Below are positions 22,246 through 61,812 of a stretch of 64,000 nucleotides of DNA, piece by piece (positions within the stretch are counted from its first letter, which is position 1; each line of letters begins with the position of its first letter). This DNA comes from Promethearchaeota archaeon. Lineage in GTDB: Archaea > Asgardarchaeota > Lokiarchaeia > Sigyniarchaeales > SOKP01. The position numbers were made by a program, and so were the translations under genes. Location of the stretch: positions 15,432 through 79,431 of the forward strand of contig JAHLWS010000060.1 of NCBI GenBank assembly GCA_019057795.1, read 5' to 3'. The notes under the pieces were generated by a model. That model was not told the DNA's origin and made no database searches. It saw only the letters and a list, made by a program, of their open reading frames with translations.

Positions 22246-23127
22246 GTGAGGAATATCGTAAATAAAACGAAAGCTTCAAAAAGAAGATTTAAAAAAGCAG
22301 AAGATATAATAAAAAAAGAAATAGAAAAGTCAAAGAATTACCTTAATATTGCTGGTGTGATTATTTTAGCTCTTGATACAGAAGGTAATATTATGTTACT
22401 AAATAAAAAAGGTCATAGAATACTTCAATACAACGAAGGAGAATTAATAGGAAGAAATTGGTTTAAAACATGCCTTCCTAAACGATATAGAGAAAATACT
22501 TATGAAACTTTCAATAAATTAATACAAGGCCAACTTGAACTCACAGAGTTTTACGAAAACCCCATATTGACCAAAAATGGAGATGAAAGAATAATTGCTT
22601 GGCATAACTCTTTATTATTTGACAGTAATGGAAATGTAATTGGAACATTAAGTTCAGGAGAAGACATCACCGAGCGCAAAAGAGCAGAGGAAAATTTAAA
22701 AGATTCTGAAGAAAAATATCGATATTTATTTGATAGCGCCCAAGTTGGGTTATATTGGTCAAAAATTAGTGATGGTAACTTTTTAGAATGTAATGATACT
22801 TTTGCCAAATTATTTGGATATGATACGCGAGAGGAATTTTTAGCAAATTATAATGCTATTGAGCATTACCTTGATCCAAATGCGCGGAGTGAACTATTAG
22901 AAGAAATCCGTGACAATAAAGAAATTAAGAATTATGAAATACATGTCACCAAAAGAGATGGTACTCCAATTTGGGTGAGTATATCTGCTCGAATGTTTGA
23001 AAATGAAAACCGTATTGAAGGTGCTGCTATTGATATCACCGAACGCAAGATAGCAGAGAGGGAACTGCAACTTGAGCGAGATAACTTCATAAATATTTTA
23101 AATTCAACGAGGGAAAAGGGAGTATAA
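22246..23127 (+). pseudogene. PAS-PAS sensor protein, C-terminally truncated (no output domain)
   Basis: Two PAS/PAC domains (GEDITERK, AIDITERK); ends at the start of a third PAS linker. Confidence 0.7.
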
Positions 23128-23296
23128 CTAAGGTTTCTGGAATAAGTCCTCCTTCTCCTGAAAGAACAGTAATTGTTTTAATTCCTATATAAAGTCTATC
23201 AGATTGGGGTATATCTCCTAATAAAACTACAGGATTAGGACCAACCTCCTCGTTCATCTCAGTGTATAAAATTCCATTAATTAGTTCTGTCTCCAT
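23087..23296 (-). pseudogene. Truncated N-terminal longin/uDENN-like domain, paralog of the 60757 N-terminus
   Basis: LINGILYTEMNEEVGPNP...IGIKTITVLSGE..IPETLVILPFPSLNLK aligns to LINAIVYTEIHDALGPNP...IGIKTVTILTGD..TPESLFIIPFPSLRLK. Confidence 0.8.
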
Positions 23297-31677: not shown

Positions 31678-33201
31678 TTAAGAGATATACCTTATTAGTA
31701 AATCTTGTGTACGGTCAAGAAAATCTTGAATGTTTTGGTTAATTTTCTCTTTTGTGCTCTCGTTGTCTAATAAGAAAAGAATGAACATATCGTAATGTAA
31801 AACCTTAATTTTCTTAAACAAAATAACTGAGTTTGAAACTTTAAATACCACTTCGCCCTTCTCTGCAGCTTTATATTTTGAAAATATTTTAAACAACATG
31901 GCAAATTGTGGAGCTACAACCTCAAATATGTTTAATAAATCCTCAGATTTTTGCATTTTTGTGATTTTCATTGCCTCAGGAGTATAAAATTCAGCCAATA
32001 CTAATCCATCGTTGCTTAACAAGAGCGCCAAACACGCGTTAGTTTTTGACGAAAATATATGAAGGTTATGTTCGATCAAGTCTCTGTTTGGACTTAATTT
32101 GGCTATACCTGAAGAAAAAGCTCTTAAAATAGTAAAGATTTGAAATACACTTGTTATGTAAATTTCAGGACTTTTGTCTAAAGAGATTTTAGCTAACTTA
32201 TTTTTTATTACTTTTAAATAATTTTTAATTTCTTTAGAATCAATTATGTCGGGGTCTCCTTTCGATAAAATGTAGATAATTGGAGTTGCCTGTTCTAGTT
32301 GAGCTAATGCTTTTTTTATATTTTTAAGATATTCAAAACTTTCTTCAAATCGGGCTTTATTTTTTATATCAATGAAATAGAAAAGCAAATCTGCTTCGAA
32401 TAAATAGATCTGGGCTTTATTAAGATATTTTTCGTGGTATGCTTTTTGACCACCTAAGTCCCACAGAAAAATTGTAGCCCCTAGTGCTTCTATTGAACTT
32501 ACATCTGCCCCCCTCGTAGGTTTTAATCCAATCAATTTTGAAAATTTTCTATCTATTGAAAGCAAAAAGCTCGTCTTCCCACTATCGTCAAGGCCCGCGA
32601 ATAAAATTTTCATTTTTCTTTGCGATGTAATAGGCGTTACTGGAGTTTTTTCAATTGTGATTATTTTTTTTAAAAGGCTCTTAAAATAACGTTTTACTTG
32701 CTCTTGTGGTTGGAACTCTTCAGCAATTATTTTATCAAACTGGTTAAAGAAATCGATAACAATATTTTTTAATCGATTGATGTTGTTATACAAGAATCCT
32801 CTTTGATTCTCGTCTACTAATATGCAGAAAGCAGTTGCCAAAGGAGCTTCATCAAATTTTACTTCAACAAAATGAAAAAATGTAAGTGCTGTTAAATGAA
32901 AATCTGGAAATGGGATAACTCCAAAGTATTGGTATTGCTTTAGCAAAGCGGAGTCTTTATTAAATAACGTCCCGTCCCCGAGGAGAAGGCTTAAGGTTTT
33001 AATTGAGATTTGCGTATAATCTCTTAAAGACATTTTAAGCCCTTTTCCAACTAATTTTTCTTTATTTTCAACTCCCAAAGCTTTCTCCTTAATTGGTTTA
33101 GGGAACATATAAATTGGTTGAGGACCTAATTTGTCGTAGGCGCAAAACACTAGTCCTTTGACCAAAGAAAACTCAATTAAATCATCCATTACATAGAACA
33201 T
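31678..33201 (-). CDS. Longin/uDENN-like + Rag/Arf-like GTPase + Roadblock-like fusion protein
   Basis: N-terminal FCAYDKLGPQP; GLDDSGKT, PTRG, WDLGGQ, SKGD, TSVF; C-terminal ALLLSNDGLVLA; paralog of 45335..46747. Confidence 0.85.
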   Translation of the reverse strand: MFYVMDDLIEFSLVKGLVFCAYDKLGPQPIYMFPKPIKEKALGVENKEKLVGKGLKMSLRDYTQISIKTLSLLLGDGTLFNKDSALLKQYQYFGVIPFPDFHLTALTFFHFVEVKFDEAPLATAFCILVDENQRGFLYNNINRLKNIVIDFFNQFDKIIAEEFQPQEQVKRYFKSLLKKIITIEKTPVTPITSQRKMKILFAGLDDSGKTSFLLSIDRKFSKLIGLKPTRGADVSSIEALGATIFLWDLGGQKAYHEKYLNKAQIYLFEADLLFYFIDIKNKARFEESFEYLKNIKKALAQLEQATPIIYILSKGDPDIIDSKEIKNYLKVIKNKLAKISLDKSPEIYITSVFQIFTILRAFSSGIAKLSPNRDLIEHNLHIFSSKTNACLALLLSNDGLVLAEFYTPEAMKITKMQKSEDLLNIFEVVAPQFAMLFKIFSKYKAAEKGEVVFKVSNSVILFKKIKVLHYDMFILFLLDNESTKEKINQNIQDFLDRTQDLLIRYIS

Positions 33202-33278
33202 TCTGGAATATTATTTTTTAATAATAAAGGTAGGAAAGTTAATTATTTAATAATAATAGATTTTTTACTAGAACACTA

Positions 33279-34226
33279 ATGTTAAAAAAAATTGCTGAAT
33301 GTATTAAGAATAATAGCAACATAATTGAAAAAAAAAGCATTGATCCAGTAGTTCAATTCATAAATTTAAATTCTTTTAAAAGTTCTCGTATTTTTTCAGA
33401 CATAGGGGAAGATTCTGCCGCAATTAAGAACGATAATGGGTTGTACACATTAGTAACAACGGATCGGATTAAAACTACTTTTATAGAGAAGTTTCCATTT
33501 GGCGCTGGCTTTAGTTCCATCTTGGTTGGAGTAGATGATATTTATGCGTGTGGAGGGACGCCATTAGCGGCAAGCTTGATAATCTCCTTTAAAGAACAAA
33601 AGATTGGGCAAAAAATTATTGAAGGTGTGTGCGCTGGCTCGAAAAAATTTAATGTTCCTATAATTCGGGGTCACACGAATATGAAAAAGCATTACGAACT
33701 AAGTACAGCATTAATTGGTGAAATCAAAAAAGAAGATTATATATCTGCAAAAAATGCACAACCAAACGATAATGTCATTTTAGCTGTAGACTTTGAAGGT
33801 CGAATCGGGAGAGCAAGCAATTTACATTGGGATACAACTACGTTTAAGGATTCTGAAATAGTTTTGAATAAAAGAAAATCTATGAATGTTATTGGTCAAG
33901 AACATCTTGCCAATTCGTCAAAGGATATATCTAACGGAGGCGTGTTTGGAACTATTTTACAACTAATTCAATATTCTGAAGTTGGCGCGGAAATAAATAT
34001 TGAAAAGATTGTTATTCCTCCAAAATTAATAGAGAAGGGGTATGATTTGGAGACTTACATTAAAATGTTTTTAACCACTTCATATATTTTAACCGCTCCT
34101 GATGAAAAGTCTCAACAAATAATCAAAATTTTTAAAGACCATAATGTGTCCGCAAATTTGATTGGAAAAATTACTAAAAAAGCGGGATTAAAAATAAATA
34201 ATGGTAAAGAATCTTTAGATGTTTAA
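33279..34226 (+). CDS. AIR synthase-related (PurM/ThiL-like) ATP-binding protein
   Basis: GEDSAAI, DDIYACGGTP, GHT, KDISNGG. Confidence 0.85.
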   Translation: MLKKIAECIKNNSNIIEKKSIDPVVQFINLNSFKSSRIFSDIGEDSAAIKNDNGLYTLVTTDRIKTTFIEKFPFGAGFSSILVGVDDIYACGGTPLAASLIISFKEQKIGQKIIEGVCAGSKKFNVPIIRGHTNMKKHYELSTALIGEIKKEDYISAKNAQPNDNVILAVDFEGRIGRASNLHWDTTTFKDSEIVLNKRKSMNVIGQEHLANSSKDISNGGVFGTILQLIQYSEVGAEINIEKIVIPPKLIEKGYDLETYIKMFLTTSYILTAPDEKSQQIIKIFKDHNVSANLIGKITKKAGLKINNGKESLDV

Positions 34227-34691: not shown

Positions 34692-35252
34692 ATGAGTTTT
34701 AACTTCAAAAATAGAATTAAGGCAACTGTTTCTGTAATTGGTACTAGCCAAATCGATTCAAAAACGGAGGAATTAGCTATTGAATTAGGAAGATTGCTCG
34801 CTATAAACAATTTTGCTGTTGCGTGCGGAGGGCTATCTGGAGTTATGGAAGCTGTTTGCAAAGGAGCGAAACAAGAAGGGGGCTTCACGATAGGAATAAT
34901 TCCTTTTAAAGATAAACATTTAGCAAATAAATATGTTGATGTTGTTATTCCAGTTCCGTTTTCTCAAGCGCGAAATATAGTTGTGGTGCTTAGTGGCGAC
35001 GCAGTAGTCGCGATAGGTGGGAAAGCTGGCACCTTATCAGAAATATGTTTCGCTTGGATATACGAGAAACCAATCGTCGCGCTAACTGGCGTAGTAGAAG
35101 GTTGGTCCTCTAAAATGGCAGGTAAAAAAATCGACGATAGAAGAAGTGATACGATATACGGAGCAAAAACAGCTCAAGAAGCGGTTGAGAAATTAAACCA
35201 ACTTTTTGAAAATGGGCCTAATACTAAGTACGGCATGCCAAATGAGTTTTAA
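34692..35252 (+). CDS. LOG/TIGR00725-like nucleotide-binding protein
   Basis: CGGLSGVMEAVCKGAK, IGIIP, ARN, GGKAGTLSE. Confidence 0.9.
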   Translation: MSFNFKNRIKATVSVIGTSQIDSKTEELAIELGRLLAINNFAVACGGLSGVMEAVCKGAKQEGGFTIGIIPFKDKHLANKYVDVVIPVPFSQARNIVVVLSGDAVVAIGGKAGTLSEICFAWIYEKPIVALTGVVEGWSSKMAGKKIDDRRSDTIYGAKTAQEAVEKLNQLFENGPNTKYGMPNEF

Positions 35253-36670: not shown

Positions 36671-37660
36671 ATGGTTGTGAGATTTCAATTGACAATTCAA
36701 TATTTATCAAAAGATAAAAAAGTTAAAAAGGAAGCTATAGCGTCACCTAGTAAAATTTTATTTACGGGTCTCGATAACGCAGGCAAAACAACAATTATTT
36801 ATGCAATACAGAGGGAATTTTCGAAAATCGCGTTTCTAAAGCCAACAAGAGGTGCCCAAAGAAGGATTTTTGAATTTCTAGGTCGAGAAATAGCTGAATG
36901 GGACCTTGGAGGTCAATTTAGCTATAGAATAGCTTATTTAAAGAATCCAGGAAAGTATTTCGATGACACTGAGATTGCAGTTTATGTAATAGATGTTCAA
37001 AATCACGCAAGAATGCCCGAGGCTATCAGTTATTTTAAAGACGTAGTAGAGCAATTTAAAAAGCTGGAAATAGAGCCGAGCATCTATGTGTTTTTCCATA
37101 AATACGATCCTGCGTTAAGACGAAACGCTTTAAACGAAATGAAGGCCCTTGAAATAGAATTAAAAGAAAAAATAAAAAGTGTGGTAGATTATAAGAAAAT
37201 CTTTTATTACAATACTTCAATCTACGATTTACCCACTATCATTAAAGCCATGTCTGAAATTCTTTTAAATATATACCCTAAATCGGAATTAATTGAAAAA
37301 ACAATCGTAGAATTTGGCAAAAAGACTTATTCTGAAGGTGTTGTTTTACTAGACGACAATAGTCTTATCGTAGGTAGTTATTACAAAGACGAGGAAACAA
37401 AGAATCTCCTCAGCGCTTCAACTCCCTATTTTTTAACCCTTAACGATAGCTTTGTTTTTACTAAAGCTCAACCAAGCCGCGAAGAAGAGGAAAATCACAT
37501 GATTGTGCAAAGATATGGAAAGAATTTCATCTTCAAGCAGCTTTCTTTAAAAGACGACTCTACTCCGTATTATTTACTTATGCTTAAACAAGATCCAAAT
37601 ATTAACAAAGAGGATTTTGATTGTTTTTCTAATTTATTAACAGAGATCCTATATAGTTAA
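36671..37660 (+). CDS. Rag/Gtr-like (Arf-related) small GTPase with C-terminal Roadblock-like domain
   Basis: GLDNAGKT, PTRG, WDLGGQ, HKYD, TSIYD (Rag-type G4/G5); C-terminal GVVLLDDNSLIVG. Confidence 0.85.
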   Translation: MVVRFQLTIQYLSKDKKVKKEAIASPSKILFTGLDNAGKTTIIYAIQREFSKIAFLKPTRGAQRRIFEFLGREIAEWDLGGQFSYRIAYLKNPGKYFDDTEIAVYVIDVQNHARMPEAISYFKDVVEQFKKLEIEPSIYVFFHKYDPALRRNALNEMKALEIELKEKIKSVVDYKKIFYYNTSIYDLPTIIKAMSEILLNIYPKSELIEKTIVEFGKKTYSEGVVLLDDNSLIVGSYYKDEETKNLLSASTPYFLTLNDSFVFTKAQPSREEEENHMIVQRYGKNFIFKQLSLKDDSTPYYLLMLKQDPNINKEDFDCFSNLLTEILYS

Positions 37661-37790: not shown

Positions 37791-38807
37791 ATGATCATTT
37801 GTTCTAATTGTGGTGCGACCAATAACGAGGAGAGCGGTCATATTTGTAGAAAATGCGGCGCTCTGCTCCCAACTTCCCACAGAACTCCAAGAATTAGACT
37901 TGCTCATAGTAAAAAGGATAAAAAAGAAGTAAAACCTCAGAAAAGAACTCCTGATGAGAAAAAAGTTTCTAAACCTAAACTAGATCATTTAGACTTACAA
38001 GAGATCCCAAAACCCGAAAAATTAAACGAAGTTGAGGATGTTCTTATTGAAACCCAAACCTCCTTCGAATACGAAGATGTCGAAGAGTTCGTAGAAAGCG
38101 AACTGGAAGATGATGAAGAAGATACAGACGCTTTAAAAGAAATTACGCCTCAACCTTATAAAGGATCAATTATTGCGGATAAAGGAGTTTTCGGACCATC
38201 CCGACAAGTTAGGAGACGTGCTGATACAAAATCACGGGTCGCTTCAAAAACAACCGTATCCCCATCTGAAAAGGAGTCTGTGCTTTTAAAGCAAAAGCAA
38301 CTAGAAGAAGATATGTCAAAGGTATTGTCATTTTTATCTAAAAAAATAACAGTTAAGCCGTTAGAATCTATAAAAAAACAAAAACAAGGTATTCAAGAGA
38401 AACCAGAAAAAAAAATACCTCCTTCCAGCATGAACGAAATTTTAAAGGATTTATTGAAGCTGGACCTACATATTGAAGCCTCCGCAATTATTAAAGGTGA
38501 TGGTACGATTCTCGCTTCAGCAATTTCATCAAGAATTTCAGAAACTTTATTTGCAACAATTGGTCAGAATTTATCCATGATTGGAGATGATATTATCAAG
38601 GGCTTAAGCGCTGGAACCTTGTTGAACATTTCCATAAGGGGAACTGATGGAGTTTTAGACCTCGCGCCCATTGGTTCAAAAAAATCATTTGGAGATGACA
38701 TGATTTTAATAATTCTTTCACATCCTCGCGTTAAATCAGGAATAATATATTTTGCTGTTAGTATCGTGAAAAAACAAGTAAAACAATATTTAGGATTATT
38801 AAAATAG
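37791..38807 (+). CDS. Zinc ribbon + disordered/acidic linker + Roadblock/LC7 domain protein
   Basis: CSNCG...CRKCG; C-terminal IEASAIIKGDGTILASA...GTLLNISIRGTDG, MglB/Roadblock pattern. Confidence 0.8.
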   Translation: MIICSNCGATNNEESGHICRKCGALLPTSHRTPRIRLAHSKKDKKEVKPQKRTPDEKKVSKPKLDHLDLQEIPKPEKLNEVEDVLIETQTSFEYEDVEEFVESELEDDEEDTDALKEITPQPYKGSIIADKGVFGPSRQVRRRADTKSRVASKTTVSPSEKESVLLKQKQLEEDMSKVLSFLSKKITVKPLESIKKQKQGIQEKPEKKIPPSSMNEILKDLLKLDLHIEASAIIKGDGTILASAISSRISETLFATIGQNLSMIGDDIIKGLSAGTLLNISIRGTDGVLDLAPIGSKKSFGDDMILIILSHPRVKSGIIYFAVSIVKKQVKQYLGLLK

Positions 38808-39747: not shown

Positions 39748-40989
39748 TTAAGATTTCTTTAGTTTTTTACTTACAAGGATTGTAACGACGGAAAGAATGC
39801 CAATTAGAACGAATAGATTATATCCCGGGATTTTAAACTCAGGTCCATCGTCCCAAATCGGGAAATTGTCTTGAGAACTTGCCGTACCTGTAATATCATA
39901 TGAAGTATCTCCTATACCGTCATCGTTAGCATCAACCCCAGGATAATCTGACCAATAATTACCTATTGTTCCATTATCCCATTGGTTATTATTCCCATTA
40001 TCTTCAGCATTAGCGTCAAGATTATTAATAAATGTATTATTAAATATTAGATTATCATGGCCACCAGCATGTATCAAAATTCCAGCTGTATTGTTAAATA
40101 TTGTGTTTCCCGATATCGTGTTATTATTACCATAAAATAATTCTATCCCCACTTCTCCGTTGGAATTTACATTGTTTCCCGAAATGGTATTATTATTAAA
40201 GTCTCCTAAATACATTCCCATTCTTGAGTTCCCTGTAATGTTGTTAAGGGATAGAATATTATTATTACCACTTAATTCAATGCCATATAGTCCAGTTCCA
40301 TAGCCACCATTGTTGCATGCGGTGTTTCTTGAAACATTGTTATTATCACCACCAATACTTATACCCACAACTTTGTTATAACTCGCGATGTTTTCTGAAA
40401 TGATGCTATAATTTCCCCCTAAACCCATTCCACTATTATTGTTATGATTTGCTGTGTTTTTGACAAAGGTGTTATTATCACCAATCATACTCATACCCGT
40501 ATCGCTGTTATAACTTACGGTGTTTTCCGAAATGATGCAATTATTACAATCTTCTACCTGTATACCATAGTCGTTATAACTTGCATTATTTCCCGTAACG
40601 ATGTTGTTATCACATGAATATATGTCTATTCCAATAAATGAATTATAAACCGTACAATTTTCAACCTTGAAATATACGCTTGAAAATTGAATCCAGATGC
40701 CAGTTCCCGAGCCTCCACCATCTATCACCAAGTCTTCTATGACATAAGGATCGGAATAGGTACCAGAGCCTGTGCATATTCCCGCAGTCACGGCATCAGT
40801 CCAATTATTGTAGATATGAATTTTTCCCGATACTTTAGAGATTTTCAAATTTTCGTCGTTAAAGTTAATGACATTGCTGAAATCCGACTCTTTATTAACC
40901 GCAGTAAAAATAGGATTACTGTTAATTATGAGTAAGGATGCGAAAACGATTCCAATCGTAACACAAATTATTTTATTTTTTCTTATCAT
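39748..40989 (-). CDS. NosD/right-handed beta-helix cell-surface protein with IPGY-TM-basic C-terminal sorting signal
   Basis: N-terminal hydrophobic signal, GSGTYSDPYVIED, Asn-rich PbH1 repeats, GNYWSDY..D..DDGIGD, IPGYNLFVLIGIL...KKLKKS. Confidence 0.88.
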   Translation of the reverse strand: MIRKNKIICVTIGIVFASLLIINSNPIFTAVNKESDFSNVINFNDENLKISKVSGKIHIYNNWTDAVTAGICTGSGTYSDPYVIEDLVIDGGGSGTGIWIQFSSVYFKVENCTVYNSFIGIDIYSCDNNIVTGNNASYNDYGIQVEDCNNCIISENTVSYNSDTGMSMIGDNNTFVKNTANHNNNSGMGLGGNYSIISENIASYNKVVGISIGGDNNNVSRNTACNNGGYGTGLYGIELSGNNNILSLNNITGNSRMGMYLGDFNNNTISGNNVNSNGEVGIELFYGNNNTISGNTIFNNTAGILIHAGGHDNLIFNNTFINNLDANAEDNGNNNQWDNGTIGNYWSDYPGVDANDDGIGDTSYDITGTASSQDNFPIWDDGPEFKIPGYNLFVLIGILSVVTILVSKKLKKS

Positions 40990-41024
40990 TTTATTTCACC
41001 TAAAATTTTTGTTATTTAATCATT

Positions 41025-42344
41025 TCAATAAGATTTCTTTATTTTCTTACTTAAAACGATTGCTACAATGGGTAGGATGCCAAGAAGAACGTATAGATTA
41101 TATCCCGGGATTTTAAACTCAGGTCCATCGTCCCAAATCGGGAAATTGTCTTGAGAACTTGCCGCACCTGTAATATCATATGGAGTATCTCCTATACCGT
41201 CATCGTTAGCATCAACTCCAGGATAATCTGACCAATAATTTCCTAATGTACTACTATTCCAATTGTTATTATTCCCATTATCTTCAGCATTAGCGTCAAT
41301 ATTATTAATAAACGTATTATTAAACACTAGATTATCAGAACAACCAGCGGATATCAATACTCCCGTGCCCGTGTTATCAATTATTTGATTTCCTTCAATA
41401 ATATTTAGTCCACTCTGTCCATCAAGGAGAAAACCATAGTTGTTATATTTTACGAAATTTCTGGTAATGTTATTGGATAATGCGTTAGGGCCCGAATCGG
41501 AATTCCATAAATGTATACCATATCCCGAATTATTCACGACGTAATTTCCTGAAATTGTGTTGTTTGGTGTTCTCACAGAGATACCTTGGCTATTATAACT
41601 ACAATTATTAGATAATACTAAGTTATTTGTACTGCTGGCTTGCATGTGTATTCCAAGCCATCCATTGAAACTAACAGTATTATTAACAATTTCATTATAA
41701 GAACTATTAGGGTCTAAACTAATTCCCTTATTCCCATTATTATTGACAGTATTTTCCATAATGTAATTATTACTACTCTCCATTAGATTCATGCCACATT
41801 CTGTATTACTATTAATAATATTCCCTTGAATGGTATTATTCTCACAAATTCCATCAAAAGTTATTCCTTCCCCATTAAATGAGCAATTGTTATTAATTAA
41901 TTGTCCATTCTTTGTGTTGCTTAATAGAATACCGAACATATCCCGGATACTTCCCGAATCGTAGAGGGTACAATTTTTAATCATAAAGTACACATTGGAA
42001 TTTTCAATTACGATGCAACTATCCGAACCGCCATCTATTACGAAATCCTCTATGACATAAGGGGAAGAATATGTACCATCACCGGTACATTTACCCGCCG
42101 CCTTAGTAGCAATCCAATTAAAACTTGGATTATCATCATCAATATAAATTGGTCCCGATATTTTTGAGAGTTTCAAATTTTGGTTGTCGAAATTTTCTGA
42201 ATATTTATCGTTTATTCCCGCATTAAAACTGAGATAATTGGAAATTGTAGGTGATAAAGCGAATATGATTCCCAGCGTGATTAAAATCAGTATTATTGAT
42301 TTTGCACTTGATTTCATTTGAATTACTTTTCTTCGCATTTTCAT
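41025..42344 (-). CDS. NosD/beta-helix cell-surface protein with IPGY sorting tail, paralog 2
   Basis: Same architecture; C-terminal DNA nearly identical to the neighbouring paralogs. Confidence 0.88.
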   Translation of the reverse strand: MKMRRKVIQMKSSAKSIILILITLGIIFALSPTISNYLSFNAGINDKYSENFDNQNLKLSKISGPIYIDDDNPSFNWIATKAAGKCTGDGTYSSPYVIEDFVIDGGSDSCIVIENSNVYFMIKNCTLYDSGSIRDMFGILLSNTKNGQLINNNCSFNGEGITFDGICENNTIQGNIINSNTECGMNLMESSNNYIMENTVNNNGNKGISLDPNSSYNEIVNNTVSFNGWLGIHMQASSTNNLVLSNNCSYNSQGISVRTPNNTISGNYVVNNSGYGIHLWNSDSGPNALSNNITRNFVKYNNYGFLLDGQSGLNIIEGNQIIDNTGTGVLISAGCSDNLVFNNTFINNIDANAEDNGNNNNWNSSTLGNYWSDYPGVDANDDGIGDTPYDITGAASSQDNFPIWDDGPEFKIPGYNLYVLLGILPIVAIVLSKKIKKSY

Positions 42345-42588
42345 TTACCTTCTTTTTTTATCAAATTTCATTATCAATTATAATTATATTTATTGATAAC
42401 GATCAAATTTCTATTGTTGATTATGGAATATAAAGATTATGCTGAAATTAACCAGTAAATTTTTACTTTTACCGGTAAAGTAGGTAATAATTAGGTTAAT
42501 ATCCTTTATATACATTTTAGTCTATTAGGGAACAAATCAATTAATATTTTTGCCAATTAGGTTTAGTGGGTAATCATGATATAATGAT
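42324..42588. repeat. About 265 bp duplicated upstream/promoter region, copy 1, ending in 13-bp repeat copy 2 (42576..42588)
   Basis: Near-identical to 43996..44260. Confidence 0.9.
42468..42479. promoter_or_regulatory. Palindrome TTTACCGGTAAA, putative regulator site
   Basis: Perfect 12-bp palindrome, also at 44140..44151, upstream of the beta-helix genes. Confidence 0.4.
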
Positions 42589-42651
42589 TAATAAAAAAGG
42601 TTAAGTACTAAGTATTTTTGAAAAATAAAACAAAAAGGAAAAAAATTATTT

Positions 42652-44016
42652 TTAATATTTCTTCAGTTTTTTACTTAAAGTGATTGATACAACTGATAGA
42701 ATGCCAAGTAGAACGAATAGATTATATCCCGGGATTTTAAATTCAGCTCCATCGTCCCAAATCGGGAAATTGTCTTGAGAACCTGCAGAACCATTAATAG
42801 TATATGGAGTATCTCCTATACCGTCATCGTTAGCATCAACCCCAGGATAATCTGACCAATAATTACCTATTGTTCCATTATCCCATTGGTTATTTGTTCC
42901 TTCATCATAACCATTATTAACTAAATTCCCTTCAATCGTGTTACTGAATATAATATTATTTTTGCTGTCAGGTCCTAATTGAATTCCAGATTCGTCATTA
43001 AAGCCTATAGTGTTTCCTGAAATAAAATTATTACTGCTTGTTATTATAATCCCGTTTCCATTATTAGTTATAATATTATCTAAAAAGGTTTGATTGTCAT
43101 GGTATACTTCTATTCCGATAGCGGAACTATCATTAACGTAATTGGCTATCACTGTGTTATTATGACTTTGCTCAACAAAACATATTCCCCATGTATTATT
43201 GTTAACAAAATTTTTTGAAATCCAATTATTATTACTGCTCCCATGGAAACCTATCCCATCGCCACTAGAGTGCTTAACGGTATTATTAAAAATTATTGTA
43301 TAATTTGTATTACCTAGACCAATTCCGCCACCATTATTTAACATTATATTTCCTGAAACAATATTATTATCTGTCTCTAATAAACTGATCCCCACTTCCC
43401 CGTTGTGATTTGCAGTGTTTCCCGAAATAGTATTATTATAGCTATTAGCTATAATTAGCCCATTATCAATGCTCTTGCTTATGATGTTTCCAGAGATGGT
43501 GTTATTATCACTAGATTCTAAGTATATACCAATATAGTTGTCATGAATAATATTGTCAATTAATTGCCCATTATCAACATCTATTGCAAGTTTGATTCCT
43601 GTATCATCCCAATTATTTCCTGAATTGTAAAGAGTACAATTTTCAATATTGAAATACACATCGGAATTTTGTATCCAGATACAACTTCCCGAGCCTCCGC
43701 CATCTATTACCAAATCTTCAATAACATAAGGATCGGAAAATGTGCCTGAACCTGTACACCATGAATAAATACTCTCTGTAGCAGACCAATTATTGTCAAT
43801 GTGAATCTTTCCCGAAACTGCTGAGAGTTTCAAATTTTCGGTATCTAAATTAATATCATCGCTATATTCTGCCCTTTTGCTGCTATTGCCCGTAATAAAA
43901 CTAAGATTAGTGGTAATTACAGGTGAGAAAGCGAACATGATTCCTAACACGATTAAAATCAATATTATTGATTTTGCCTTTGATTTCATTTTAACTACTT
44001 TTCTTCGCATTTTCAT
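42652..44016 (-). CDS. NosD/beta-helix cell-surface protein with IPGY sorting tail, paralog 3
   Basis: Same architecture, ends IPGYNLFVLLGILSVVSITLSKKLKKY. Confidence 0.88.
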   Translation of the reverse strand: MKMRRKVVKMKSKAKSIILILIVLGIMFAFSPVITTNLSFITGNSSKRAEYSDDINLDTENLKLSAVSGKIHIDNNWSATESIYSWCTGSGTFSDPYVIEDLVIDGGGSGSCIWIQNSDVYFNIENCTLYNSGNNWDDTGIKLAIDVDNGQLIDNIIHDNYIGIYLESSDNNTISGNIISKSIDNGLIIANSYNNTISGNTANHNGEVGISLLETDNNIVSGNIMLNNGGGIGLGNTNYTIIFNNTVKHSSGDGIGFHGSSNNNWISKNFVNNNTWGICFVEQSHNNTVIANYVNDSSAIGIEVYHDNQTFLDNIITNNGNGIIITSSNNFISGNTIGFNDESGIQLGPDSKNNIIFSNTIEGNLVNNGYDEGTNNQWDNGTIGNYWSDYPGVDANDDGIGDTPYTINGSAGSQDNFPIWDDGAEFKIPGYNLFVLLGILSVVSITLSKKLKKY

Positions 44017-60756: not shown

Positions 60757-61812
60757 ATGAATGTGCAAAAGGGATTAATAAACGCAATTGTTTACACAGA
60801 GATACACGACGCGTTAGGACCAAATCCTATTTATTGGTATCCTTCTAGTTTACCAGAAAACATTAGAATGCTAATTGGAATTAAAACAGTTACAATCCTT
60901 ACAGGAGATCAAGGAATCACACCAGAATCTCTCTTTATTATCCCATTTCCATCTTTAAGGTTAAAAGGGTTAATAAGATATATTGAAAGGGAAGATGAAA
61001 CCCGAAGAGGGGGGTACGCTAGGTCAGCTATTACTTTCTTGTTTAAAGAAGAGGACGATGTTATTTTCTATAAATATATGGTTTACATTAAAGCCCCTTT
61101 CAACGAAGCAGCGAGAAAAATTATAGAATTAGAAAACCAACAGGCTGATAGTGAAAGAATTTTTGAAGAGATAAAATTATTAGGAGATAGCATTAGTAAG
61201 CTACTCGAAGATTATAGAAGTAAAGAGATTTCTCCACTCTCTAGTGAAGAATTTCCCGAACATAGAGATAAAAAAATAGAAAAAGTTAAGTTTAAACTCA
61301 AATTAGTTGTTGTAGGAGACCCTGGGGTAGGAAAAACATCAACAATTCTACGATTTTCCGATAATGCATTTCTTAGAACTTACATTCCTACCATGGGAGT
61401 TAATATCACGGAGAAAAGCTTTCGCGTTAAAAAAGACGTCCTTGAAGTGATATTATGGGATATAGCAGGGCAATCAAAATTCCAAACGATGAGAAGACAC
61501 TTTTATCAAGGCTCAGAAGCTATTATACTTATTTTTGATTTAACAAATCCATTAACTTTTAGAAGTATAAAGAATTGGTACGATGATGTAATAAAGAATA
61601 TGGATAAGCAGCCTAAAATGATAGGTTATATTTTTGGAAACAAAAGCGATTTGGTAGACGAAAGAAAAGTTCAAGAAAGCGAAGGGTTAGCATTAGCTAA
61701 AGAGTTAAATCTGGAATACATAGAAACCAGCGCTTTGACAGGAAATAACATTGAAAACGCTTTTTATAAAATAGCAGAAGCAGTAATTGATACGCATTTA
61801 GAAGAAACTTAA
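60757..61812 (+). CDS. Longin/uDENN-like + Rab-like GTPase fusion
   Basis: YTEIHDALGPNP, DETRRGG; GDPGVGKT, PTMGV, WDIAGQ, NKSD, TSA. Confidence 0.88.
   Translation: MNVQKGLINAIVYTEIHDALGPNPIYWYPSSLPENIRMLIGIKTVTILTGDQGITPESLFIIPFPSLRLKGLIRYIEREDETRRGGYARSAITFLFKEEDDVIFYKYMVYIKAPFNEAARKIIELENQQADSERIFEEIKLLGDSISKLLEDYRSKEISPLSSEEFPEHRDKKIEKVKFKLKLVVVGDPGVGKTSTILRFSDNAFLRTYIPTMGVNITEKSFRVKKDVLEVILWDIAGQSKFQTMRRHFYQGSEAIILIFDLTNPLTFRSIKNWYDDVIKNMDKQPKMIGYIFGNKSDLVDERKVQESEGLALAKELNLEYIETSALTGNNIENAFYKIAEAVIDTHLEET

Follow-up and report, generated by a model that had tools for sequence, protein, structure and literature searches.

In a stretch of 64,000 nucleotides from a Promethearchaeota archaeon of the Lokiarchaeia (assembly GCA_019057795.1, contig JAHLWS010000060.1, positions 15,432 to 79,431; hereafter the window), two genes code for proteins in which a longin domain, a Rag-type GTPase (G) domain and a roadblock domain follow one another in a single chain, a layout referred to here as longin-GTPase-roadblock (L-G-R). 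The two paralogues, P1 (P0001) and P2 (P0002), differ in a loop of the longin, where P2 carries an arginine (Arg+) and P1 does not (Arg-). It is very likely that P1 is a working GTPase of the Rag family with a longin of the folliculin/SMCR8 type, which has the glycine-proline (GP) motif but in which the arginine was replaced by the acidic pair D117-E118, and that P1 falls in a single Arg-less clade, which evolves faster, arose once from Arg-bearing L-G-R proteins and is found in nearly all genomes of the family, syntenic with P2. By analogy with known Rag and longin complexes we further propose, as a possible rather than a probable mechanism, that P1 and P2 form a heterodimer.

Domain layout and GTPase motifs of P1 and P2

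P1 and P2 can be aligned from end to end with 33% identity (BLASTP, E value 1e-87), which at the level of sequence is a similarity far beyond chance, and they have in common the motifs KT.SLL.GD, YFG..PFPD, LSPNR and FE..AP.F. Both proteins matched the Pfam family Gtr1_RagA (PF04670; cut-off 22 bits), P1 with 76.1 bits over residues 198-421 and P2 with 91 bits. AlphaFold2 (AF2) models, made with input alignments of 66 rows for P1 and 54 rows for P2, had a mean predicted local distance difference test score (pLDDT) of 79.7 and 76.5, respectively. In fold searches with the P1 model, residues 11-189 matched the dimeric Lokiarchaeial longin 8yqg_B (Z 16.8, root-mean-square deviation 2.5 Å, 145 residues aligned), and residues 196-503 matched LokiRagO (8yl2, Z 27.0), human RagC (6nzd_G, Z 24.0), Gtr2 (Z 22.7) and Gtr1 (Z 22.1); the P2 model gave the same picture of a longin joined to a Rag. 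Searches with the whole models were filled by GTPases, and longins of the FLCN type are therefore unranked in them. To judge from the models, the L-G-R layout of both proteins is real, and the three-domain likeness and the common motifs on which the original prediction was built have been borne out by BLASTP, Pfam, the AF2 models and the fold searches. Between strand 2 and helix 1, the longin of P1 is lengthened by some 20 variable residues (about 36-58), with a pLDDT below 50 at residues 43-52. The roadblock domain at the C-terminus is the usual dimerisation module of Rag proteins.

The fourth GTPase motif (G4) of P1 reads SKGD and that of P2 NKYD. The original prediction had given these letters correctly and had called the P1 motif degenerate, a description that did not stand up. 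Across the L-G-R superfamily the first residue of G4 can be N, S, T or H, and the lysine (K314 in P1) and the aspartate (D316) are nearly invariant; solved Rags, namely LokiRagO (crystallised with GTP), LokiRagM and human RagA, have HKxD. In the family of the present genome (f1), all 19 P1 orthologues aligned have SK[G/V/A]D, G1 GLDxSGK[T/S], the G2 threonine, the G3 glutamine (DLGGQ, or DLSGQ in two) and G5, and the mean identity within these orthologues is 0.66 for the G domain, 0.56 for the roadblock and 0.51 for the longin. Like other members of the Rag/Gtr family, P1 has the Pfam match, the order of G domain and roadblock and, by sequence, all of the motifs G1-G5, which argues for a working GTPase and not a decayed one. 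Loss of G3 was seen in one Arg- sister clade (P0256, P0264, P0266, P0272, P0275).

The arginine loop and the history of the Arg-less clade

The P2 loop reads IYDPKARGNAKA, and its counterpart in P1 reads VEVKFDEAPLA. When a profile of P1-type longins was aligned to one of Arg+ longins (hhalign, probability 99.9%, E value 2.6e-33), D117 of P1 was found to face R91 of P2, and E118 to face G92. The Arg+ set of 18 longins was made up of P2, orthologues of it with 42% identity or more, seven representatives of distant clusters and one longin-Rab fusion, and ten residues are invariant among them (G21, P22, K43, G50, P70, F71, D87, R91, G92 and Y112), so that the P2 loop can be written D87-x-x-A-R91-G92 throughout. 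At the two positions aligned to R91-G92, none of the 19 f1 orthologues of P1 has an arginine or a lysine; the position of E118 is a glutamate in 14 of the 19, and a proline follows two residues further on. The absence of an arginine from the P1 loop, which had been read from this one gene, thus holds clade-wide, and the sequences indicate that the loop is one of changed charge and not of mere drift.

In the P2 model R91 lies in the loop of the hairpin formed by strands 76-86 and 94-104, and the GP motif at the turn of strands 1 and 2. An Arg finger in the loop of strands 4 and 5 together with a GP motif was described for FLCN, SMCR8, NPRL2 and "FLCN/SMCR8-type" Asgard longins (PMC12290439), and the P2 model agrees with that arrangement. 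Matches to Pfam Folliculin (PF11704) running across the loop were obtained for 17 of the 18 Arg+ longins, with a best E value of 1.8e-5 and all below the gathering score; among 12 P1-type longins there was no Folliculin match at an E value of 1 or less. A phmmer search of P2 longin residues 1-160 against the PDB sequences returned nothing at an E value of 10 or less, and the profile of the 18 Arg+ longins matched only the Lokiarchaeial longin 8yqg (E value 1e-3), and not FLCN, SMCR8 or NPRL2. From the sub-threshold Folliculin matches, the position in the loop of strands 4 and 5 and the published arrangement (PMC12290439) we infer that R91 is the putative equivalent of the eukaryotic Arg finger; no residue-level alignment to FLCN supports this. 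Compared with the GAP (GTPase-activating protein) longins, P1 has the longin fold and the GP motif, and it has neither the Arg finger nor the similarity to Folliculin.

Homologues of P1 at an E value of 1e-5 or less fall into 345 clusters at 90% identity, the best 120 of the 345 being at least 59% identical to it, and those of P2 into 599 such clusters, the best 120 of the 599 being at least 73% identical. When 1.8 billion cluster representatives were searched exhaustively, about 27 full-length L-G-R representatives were obtained, which form one Arg+ group and several Arg- groups. In a maximum-likelihood tree of 48 sequences, made without the Arg-loop columns and without the very long P0275, all 26 Arg- proteins formed a single clade (bootstrap/SH-aLRT 100/100; 200 of 200 bootstrap trees), and a quick tree agreed. 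It follows from this single clade that the arginine was lost once. The remainder of the tree consists of Arg+ proteins, and Rag-like GTPases with a roadblock and no longin (G-R Rags) attach among them. Arg+ would be the older state if the root, which the tree does not establish, is placed on the G-R Rags or close to them. On a fixed topology the tree length is 7.97 for P1 and 4.92 for P2, which makes P1 1.6 times faster, and for the longin the figures are 10.5 and 5.6 (1.9 times). A fast longin next to a conserved G domain is what one would expect to see in a non-catalytic partner whose switch still works.

Longins fused to GTPases of the Rab/Ras type are also found in this genome, as two proteins of 351 amino acids each. 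The copy in the window (60757..61812, + strand) has the GP motif and the Arg loop (ETRRGGYARSAITF), and the copy on another contig (L041 220..1275, that is, G000:C55:24519-25574) has neither, reading DKPK at the loop (STKIGSFSKSAITF); therefore a second longin-GTPase family of the genome also has an Arg+ and an Arg- member. Longin-Rab-like frames of about 350 amino acids occur across f1, often two or three to a genome and often on the contig that carries the P1-P2 gene block. A further open reading frame (ORF) of 69 amino acids (23087..23296, - strand) corresponds to the N-terminal half of a longin of the longin-Rab type, with GP present; it is cut by a stop codon and overlapped by a convergent ORF of 293 amino acids (22246..23127), and is probably a truncated remnant.

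Co-occurrence, gene order and candidate partners

By its own terms the original prediction would have failed if the Arg+ and Arg- subfamilies did not occur together; they do, and they are linked. Genomes sampled from the class numbered 121, with 103 (the present one included) in f1, and among these f1 genomes a P1 orthologue was found in 95 and a P2 orthologue in 90: both in 86, P1 alone in nine, P2 alone in four and neither in four. Co-occurrence in f1 is at least 86 of 103, as several of the genes that seem to be missing fall at contig ends or N gaps. When five discordant genomes were examined, the missing gene fell at a contig end or an N gap in three (G095, G102, G009), the scaffold of a fourth (G093) had runs of N, and the fifth (G030) was a true loss. 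Raw absence counts were for this reason rejected as evidence against co-occurrence. In families f2 and f3 a P2 orthologue with 42-45% identity was found together with an Arg- L-G-R protein with 33-39% identity, and families f4-f6 had only weaker matches. Among 161 genomes sampled from the whole phylum, P2-like proteins (E value 1e-45 or less) were present in 27 of 28 f1 and 2 of 2 f2 genomes and in none of the 131 genomes sampled from 25 other Asgard families; six other families had weaker matches to the Arg+ longin profile, in frames that differed in length. P1 and P2 are the only L-G-R proteins of the present genome.

Twenty loci with both genes on one contig were compared, f2 included, and in all 20 P1 and P2 are divergent and lie 4-19 kb apart (12 kb here; Table 1). 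The order of the block is the same in each: P1, an AIR-synthase-related gene, a TIGR00725/SLOG gene, the G-R Rag, a zinc-ribbon protein (in f1 only), a NERD-like gene, an ATP-cone-like gene and P2. The gene at the P1 position in f2 is from a sister Arg- clade and has the loop RKRFIP. The Pfam matches of the zinc-ribbon protein are weak (Zn_ribbon_3, E value 1.5e-3; Robl_LC7, E value 0.041), and its gene is kept in the f1 block and missing from the f2 loci. The other genes of the block have no evident link to GTPases.

Table 1. Positions in the window of P1, of its domains and motifs, and of genes of the block
Feature	Position	Strand	Remarks
P1 (P0001), Arg-less paralogue, longin-Rag GTPase-roadblock, 507 amino acids	31678..33201	-	Stop codon 31678-31680
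P1 longin domain, residues 11-189	32635..33171	-	Match to 8yqg_B; hhalign to Arg+ longins
P1 GP motif G26-P27, turn of strands 1 and 2	33121..33126	-	Invariant in alignments A1 and A4
P1 loop of strands 4 and 5, E113-P120, EVKFDEAP	32842..32865	-	Counterpart of the P2 Arg-finger loop
P1 Rag-type G domain, residues 196-372 (G1 GLDDSGKT, G2 PT, G3 WDLGGQ, G5 TSVF)	32086..32616	-	
P1 G4 SKGD, S313-D316	32254..32265	-	SK[G/V/A]D in 19/19 f1 orthologues
P1 C-terminal roadblock domain, residues 373-507	31681..32085	-	LokiRagO/RagC/Gtr match to residue 503
AIR-synthase-related gene, methanogenesis-marker-2-like (sub-threshold)	33279..34226	+	Always divergent from P1
TIGR00725/SLOG gene	34692..35252	+	
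LokiRagO-type G-R Rag without longin	36671..37660	+	Gtr1_RagA 89.7 bits; 8yl2 E value 2.7e-90; 20/20 syntenic loci
Zinc-ribbon protein, 338 amino acids: N-terminal CxxC...CxxC, long charged linker, probable C-terminal roadblock	37791..38807	+	Directly downstream of the G-R Rag
P2 (P0002), Arg+ L-G-R paralogue, 470 amino acids	45335..46747	+	R91 codon 45605-45607

P1 and the AIR-synthase-related gene stand head to head across an intergenic stretch of 77 bp (33202..33278), which measures about 80-95 bp in all 20 loci, those of f2 included, and which may be a shared promoter region. Three genes for beta-helix (NosD-like) surface proteins (39748..44016) lie inside the block in the present genome only; as the NERD-like gene (38831) directly precedes the ATP-cone-like gene in 20 related loci, they are a lineage-specific insertion. 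The 141-amino-acid ORF before P2 (44612..45037, - strand) matches only a portion of a protein of 589-618 amino acids found at the same position in more distant relatives (L020-L027 and L031); it is short (141-160 amino acids) in the present genome and its nearest relatives, as a truncated or domain-only form. Three RNA runs contain only 6-13% of the sampled words.

Rate covariation among six proteins of the block was assessed with residual rates from branch lengths on one topology (FastTree; 21 loci, 39 branches). The correlations (rho) were 0.52 for P1 and the G-R Rag, 0.44 for P2 and the G-R Rag and 0.43 for P1 and P2, which rank first, third and fourth of the 15 pairs. This is weak evidence, owing to the small sample, the related taxa and the constraints common to paralogues, and it favours a pair of P1 and P2 no more than a module of three proteins.

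By its likeness to the Rags and to the solved Lokiarchaeial longin, P1 would be expected to dimerise through both its longin and its roadblock. In the heterodimer that we tentatively propose, these two domains would hold the subunits together, with P1 as the non-catalytic one, and the likeliest partner of P1 would be P2, the sole other L-G-R protein of the genome. A single Arg finger, R91 of P2, would then serve two G domains, which would lead to unequal rates of hydrolysis, and the two GTPases could hold opposite nucleotide states, like RagA/RagC. This reading is favoured because of the common layout, the intact GTPase motifs, the clade-wide loss of the arginine and the conserved glutamate and proline in the loop; because the Folliculin-like signal is confined to the Arg+ side (17/18 against 0/12), the Arg- clade has one origin and P1 evolves faster; because the two genes co-occur in a conserved divergent arrangement as the only L-G-R genes of the genome, with a rho of 0.43; and because 8yqg is a dimer, C9orf72-SMCR8 offers a precedent and the second longin-GTPase family likewise has Arg+ and Arg- members.

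Several observations weigh against a P1:P2 pair. Co-occurrence of two near-universal genes says little on contact, and the two are not co-transcribed, being divergent with unrelated genes between them. The flanks of the block are syntenic too (MtrH and a 28791-like gene), and the linkage may for that reason reflect nothing more than gene order conserved since a local duplication, without indicating that the genes act together. In G030, which is 99% complete, the whole block is kept with P2 and P1 is cleanly deleted between the AIR-synthase-like gene and MtrH, with nothing but an ORF of 66 amino acids in the gap (L039 14461..17037, G030:C51); P2 therefore does not need P1. The covariation of P1 with the G-R Rag is no weaker than that with P2, and the G-R Rag of the block is an equally good candidate for the partner of P1. 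LokiRagO crystallised as a homotetramer, and Tran et al. (2024; PMC10933270) modelled longin-containing GTPases of strain MK-D1 as AF2 homodimers.

It is in keeping with much of this that P1 might be an independent, homodimeric switch, held together by roadblock and longin and resting in a slow, long-lived GTP state, which would receive a GAP arginine only transiently in trans, from P2, from the Arg+ longin-Rab fusion (60757) or from another GAP, and would enter no stable complex with P2. The MK-D1 longin-GTPases gave typical AF2 homodimers (Tran et al., 2024), LokiRagO is a homo-oligomer and the 8yqg longin a homodimer; P1 and P2 are separate transcription units, G030 has P2 without P1, the G domain of P1 is well conserved by itself and there are other Arg+ longins in the genome. 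Such a switch leaves unexplained, however, why an Arg- lineage was kept beside the Arg+ one across the order and why the former Arg loop has a conserved glutamate and proline, and the P1 longin retains the GP motif, which in eukaryotes marks the longins of a catalytic pocket (PMC12290439). We consider this account somewhat unlikely.

The conserved block brings in other candidate partners. P1 could act with the LokiRagO-type G-R Rag (36671), with the zinc-ribbon protein (37791) or with both, the block coding for a Rag/Ragulator-like assembly of four roadblock-bearing proteins in which P1 and P2 would be alternative or joint subunits, an account that we regard as unlikely. In f1 the block contains all four of these genes, and in f2 it contains three, the intergenic region of about 80-95 bp is common to P1 and the string of genes that holds the G-R Rag, P1/G-R is the top covarying pair, with P2/G-R third, and in eukaryotes the roadblock dimers of the Rags stack on those of Ragulator (PMC10933270). 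Yet the roadblock call in the zinc-ribbon protein is weak and its gene is missing in f2, covariation of paralogues may stem from common constraints and not from contact, the LokiRagO crystal is homo-oligomeric, and the block holds unrelated genes as well. That P1 is a decaying duplicate, a pseudo-GTPase without a role of its own, is very improbable: its 1.6-fold faster evolution, the disappearance of the arginine and of the Folliculin-like signal, its outright loss in G030 and the missing G3 of the Arg- sister clade point that way, but some 95 of the 103 family genomes carry it as an open, full-length frame, the 345 homologue clusters include a best 120 with at least 59% identity, G1-G5 are intact with SK[G/V/A]D fixed, and the mean identity of the G domain stands at 0.66.

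Comparison with known systems

Eukaryotic Rag signalling has two asymmetries, the opposite nucleotide states within the Rag heterodimer and the GAPs that pair a catalytic with a non-catalytic longin. Here a prokaryote has two linked genes, one for a GTPase fused to a longin of the catalytic type and one for a sister GTPase fused to an Arg-less longin. If P1 and P2 do pair, two recombinant proteins and a single point mutant could put the origin of Rag asymmetry to the test; otherwise P1 nonetheless represents a conserved Rag-like GTPase subfamily without a built-in GAP residue.

Fusions of GTPases to longin and to roadblock domains were reported in Lokiarchaeum by Klinger et al. (2016), as cited in PMC4917890, and the L-G-R layout with AF2 homodimers was described for MK-D1, for example in a protein labelled LGR (Tran et al., 2024; PMC10933270). 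Like P1, these Lokiarchaeial GTPases have the same domain order in one chain, a Rag/Arf-like G domain and a roadblock tail that is predicted to dimerise. In those papers, unlike in the present work, only homodimers were modelled and no Arg+/Arg- split was drawn, whereas P1 belongs to an Arg-less clade of single origin that is linked to an Arg+ copy. New here are the finding that these proteins divide into an Arg+ group and an Arg- clade of single origin, the invariance of SK[G/V/A]D in a switch that is intact, the presence of a LokiRagO-type Rag in the conserved block, and a distribution confined to one order in the samples searched. Within the L-G-R proteins, the P2 clade resembles P1 along its full length (33% identity for P2), in its domains and in its GP motif. 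It differs from P1 in having D-x-x-A-R-G and a Folliculin-like signal, where P1 has D-E, a longin insertion of about 20 residues, a serine for the asparagine of G4 and an evolution 1.6 to 1.9 times faster.

The Rags proper (RagA/RagC, Gtr1/Gtr2, LokiRagO 8yl2, LokiRagM 8zla/9m28) have in common with P1 the fold of G domain and roadblock, the Gtr1_RagA match and a G4 other than NKxD; P1 differs from them in its additional N-terminal longin and in a G4 that begins with serine and not histidine. A literature search found no paper for 8YL2 or "LokiRag". Like C9orf72 (with SMCR8), FNIP (with FLCN) and NPRL3 (with NPRL2), P1 has a longin without an Arg finger beside a paralogous, co-occurring longin that bears the arginine, and like C9orf72 it has kept the GP motif (PMC12290439). 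In the complex of C9orf72, SMCR8 and WDR41 (CSW), the Arg-less, GP-bearing longin of C9orf72 helps to build the catalytic pocket with SMCR8 (PMC12290439). Unlike these eukaryotic longins, P1 lacks a DENN domain and carries a GTPase and a roadblock of its own in the same chain; its likeness to them is a putative one of role and not a demonstrated homology to a particular partner.

The original prediction had suggested that a P1-P2 heterodimer may prefigure both eukaryotic heterodimers, and this claim is weakened by the distribution of P2-like proteins, which were found in f1 and f2 of one order and in none of the 131 genomes of the 25 other families; so restricted a distribution warns against taking P1 as a direct ancestor of the eukaryotic complexes. 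A wider proposal is that Lokiarchaeia of the P1/P2 order build asymmetric switches from pairs of Arg+ and Arg- longin-GTPases, with P1 and P2 joined by longin and roadblock, sharing one finger and holding opposite states, and that the same rule recurs in the longin-Rab fusions, either independently of the eukaryotic complexes or before them. We regard it as rather doubtful as a whole. Were the pairing rule true, P1 and P2 would be an analogue, in one pair of genes, of RagA/RagC combined with FLCN/FNIP or SMCR8/C9orf72.

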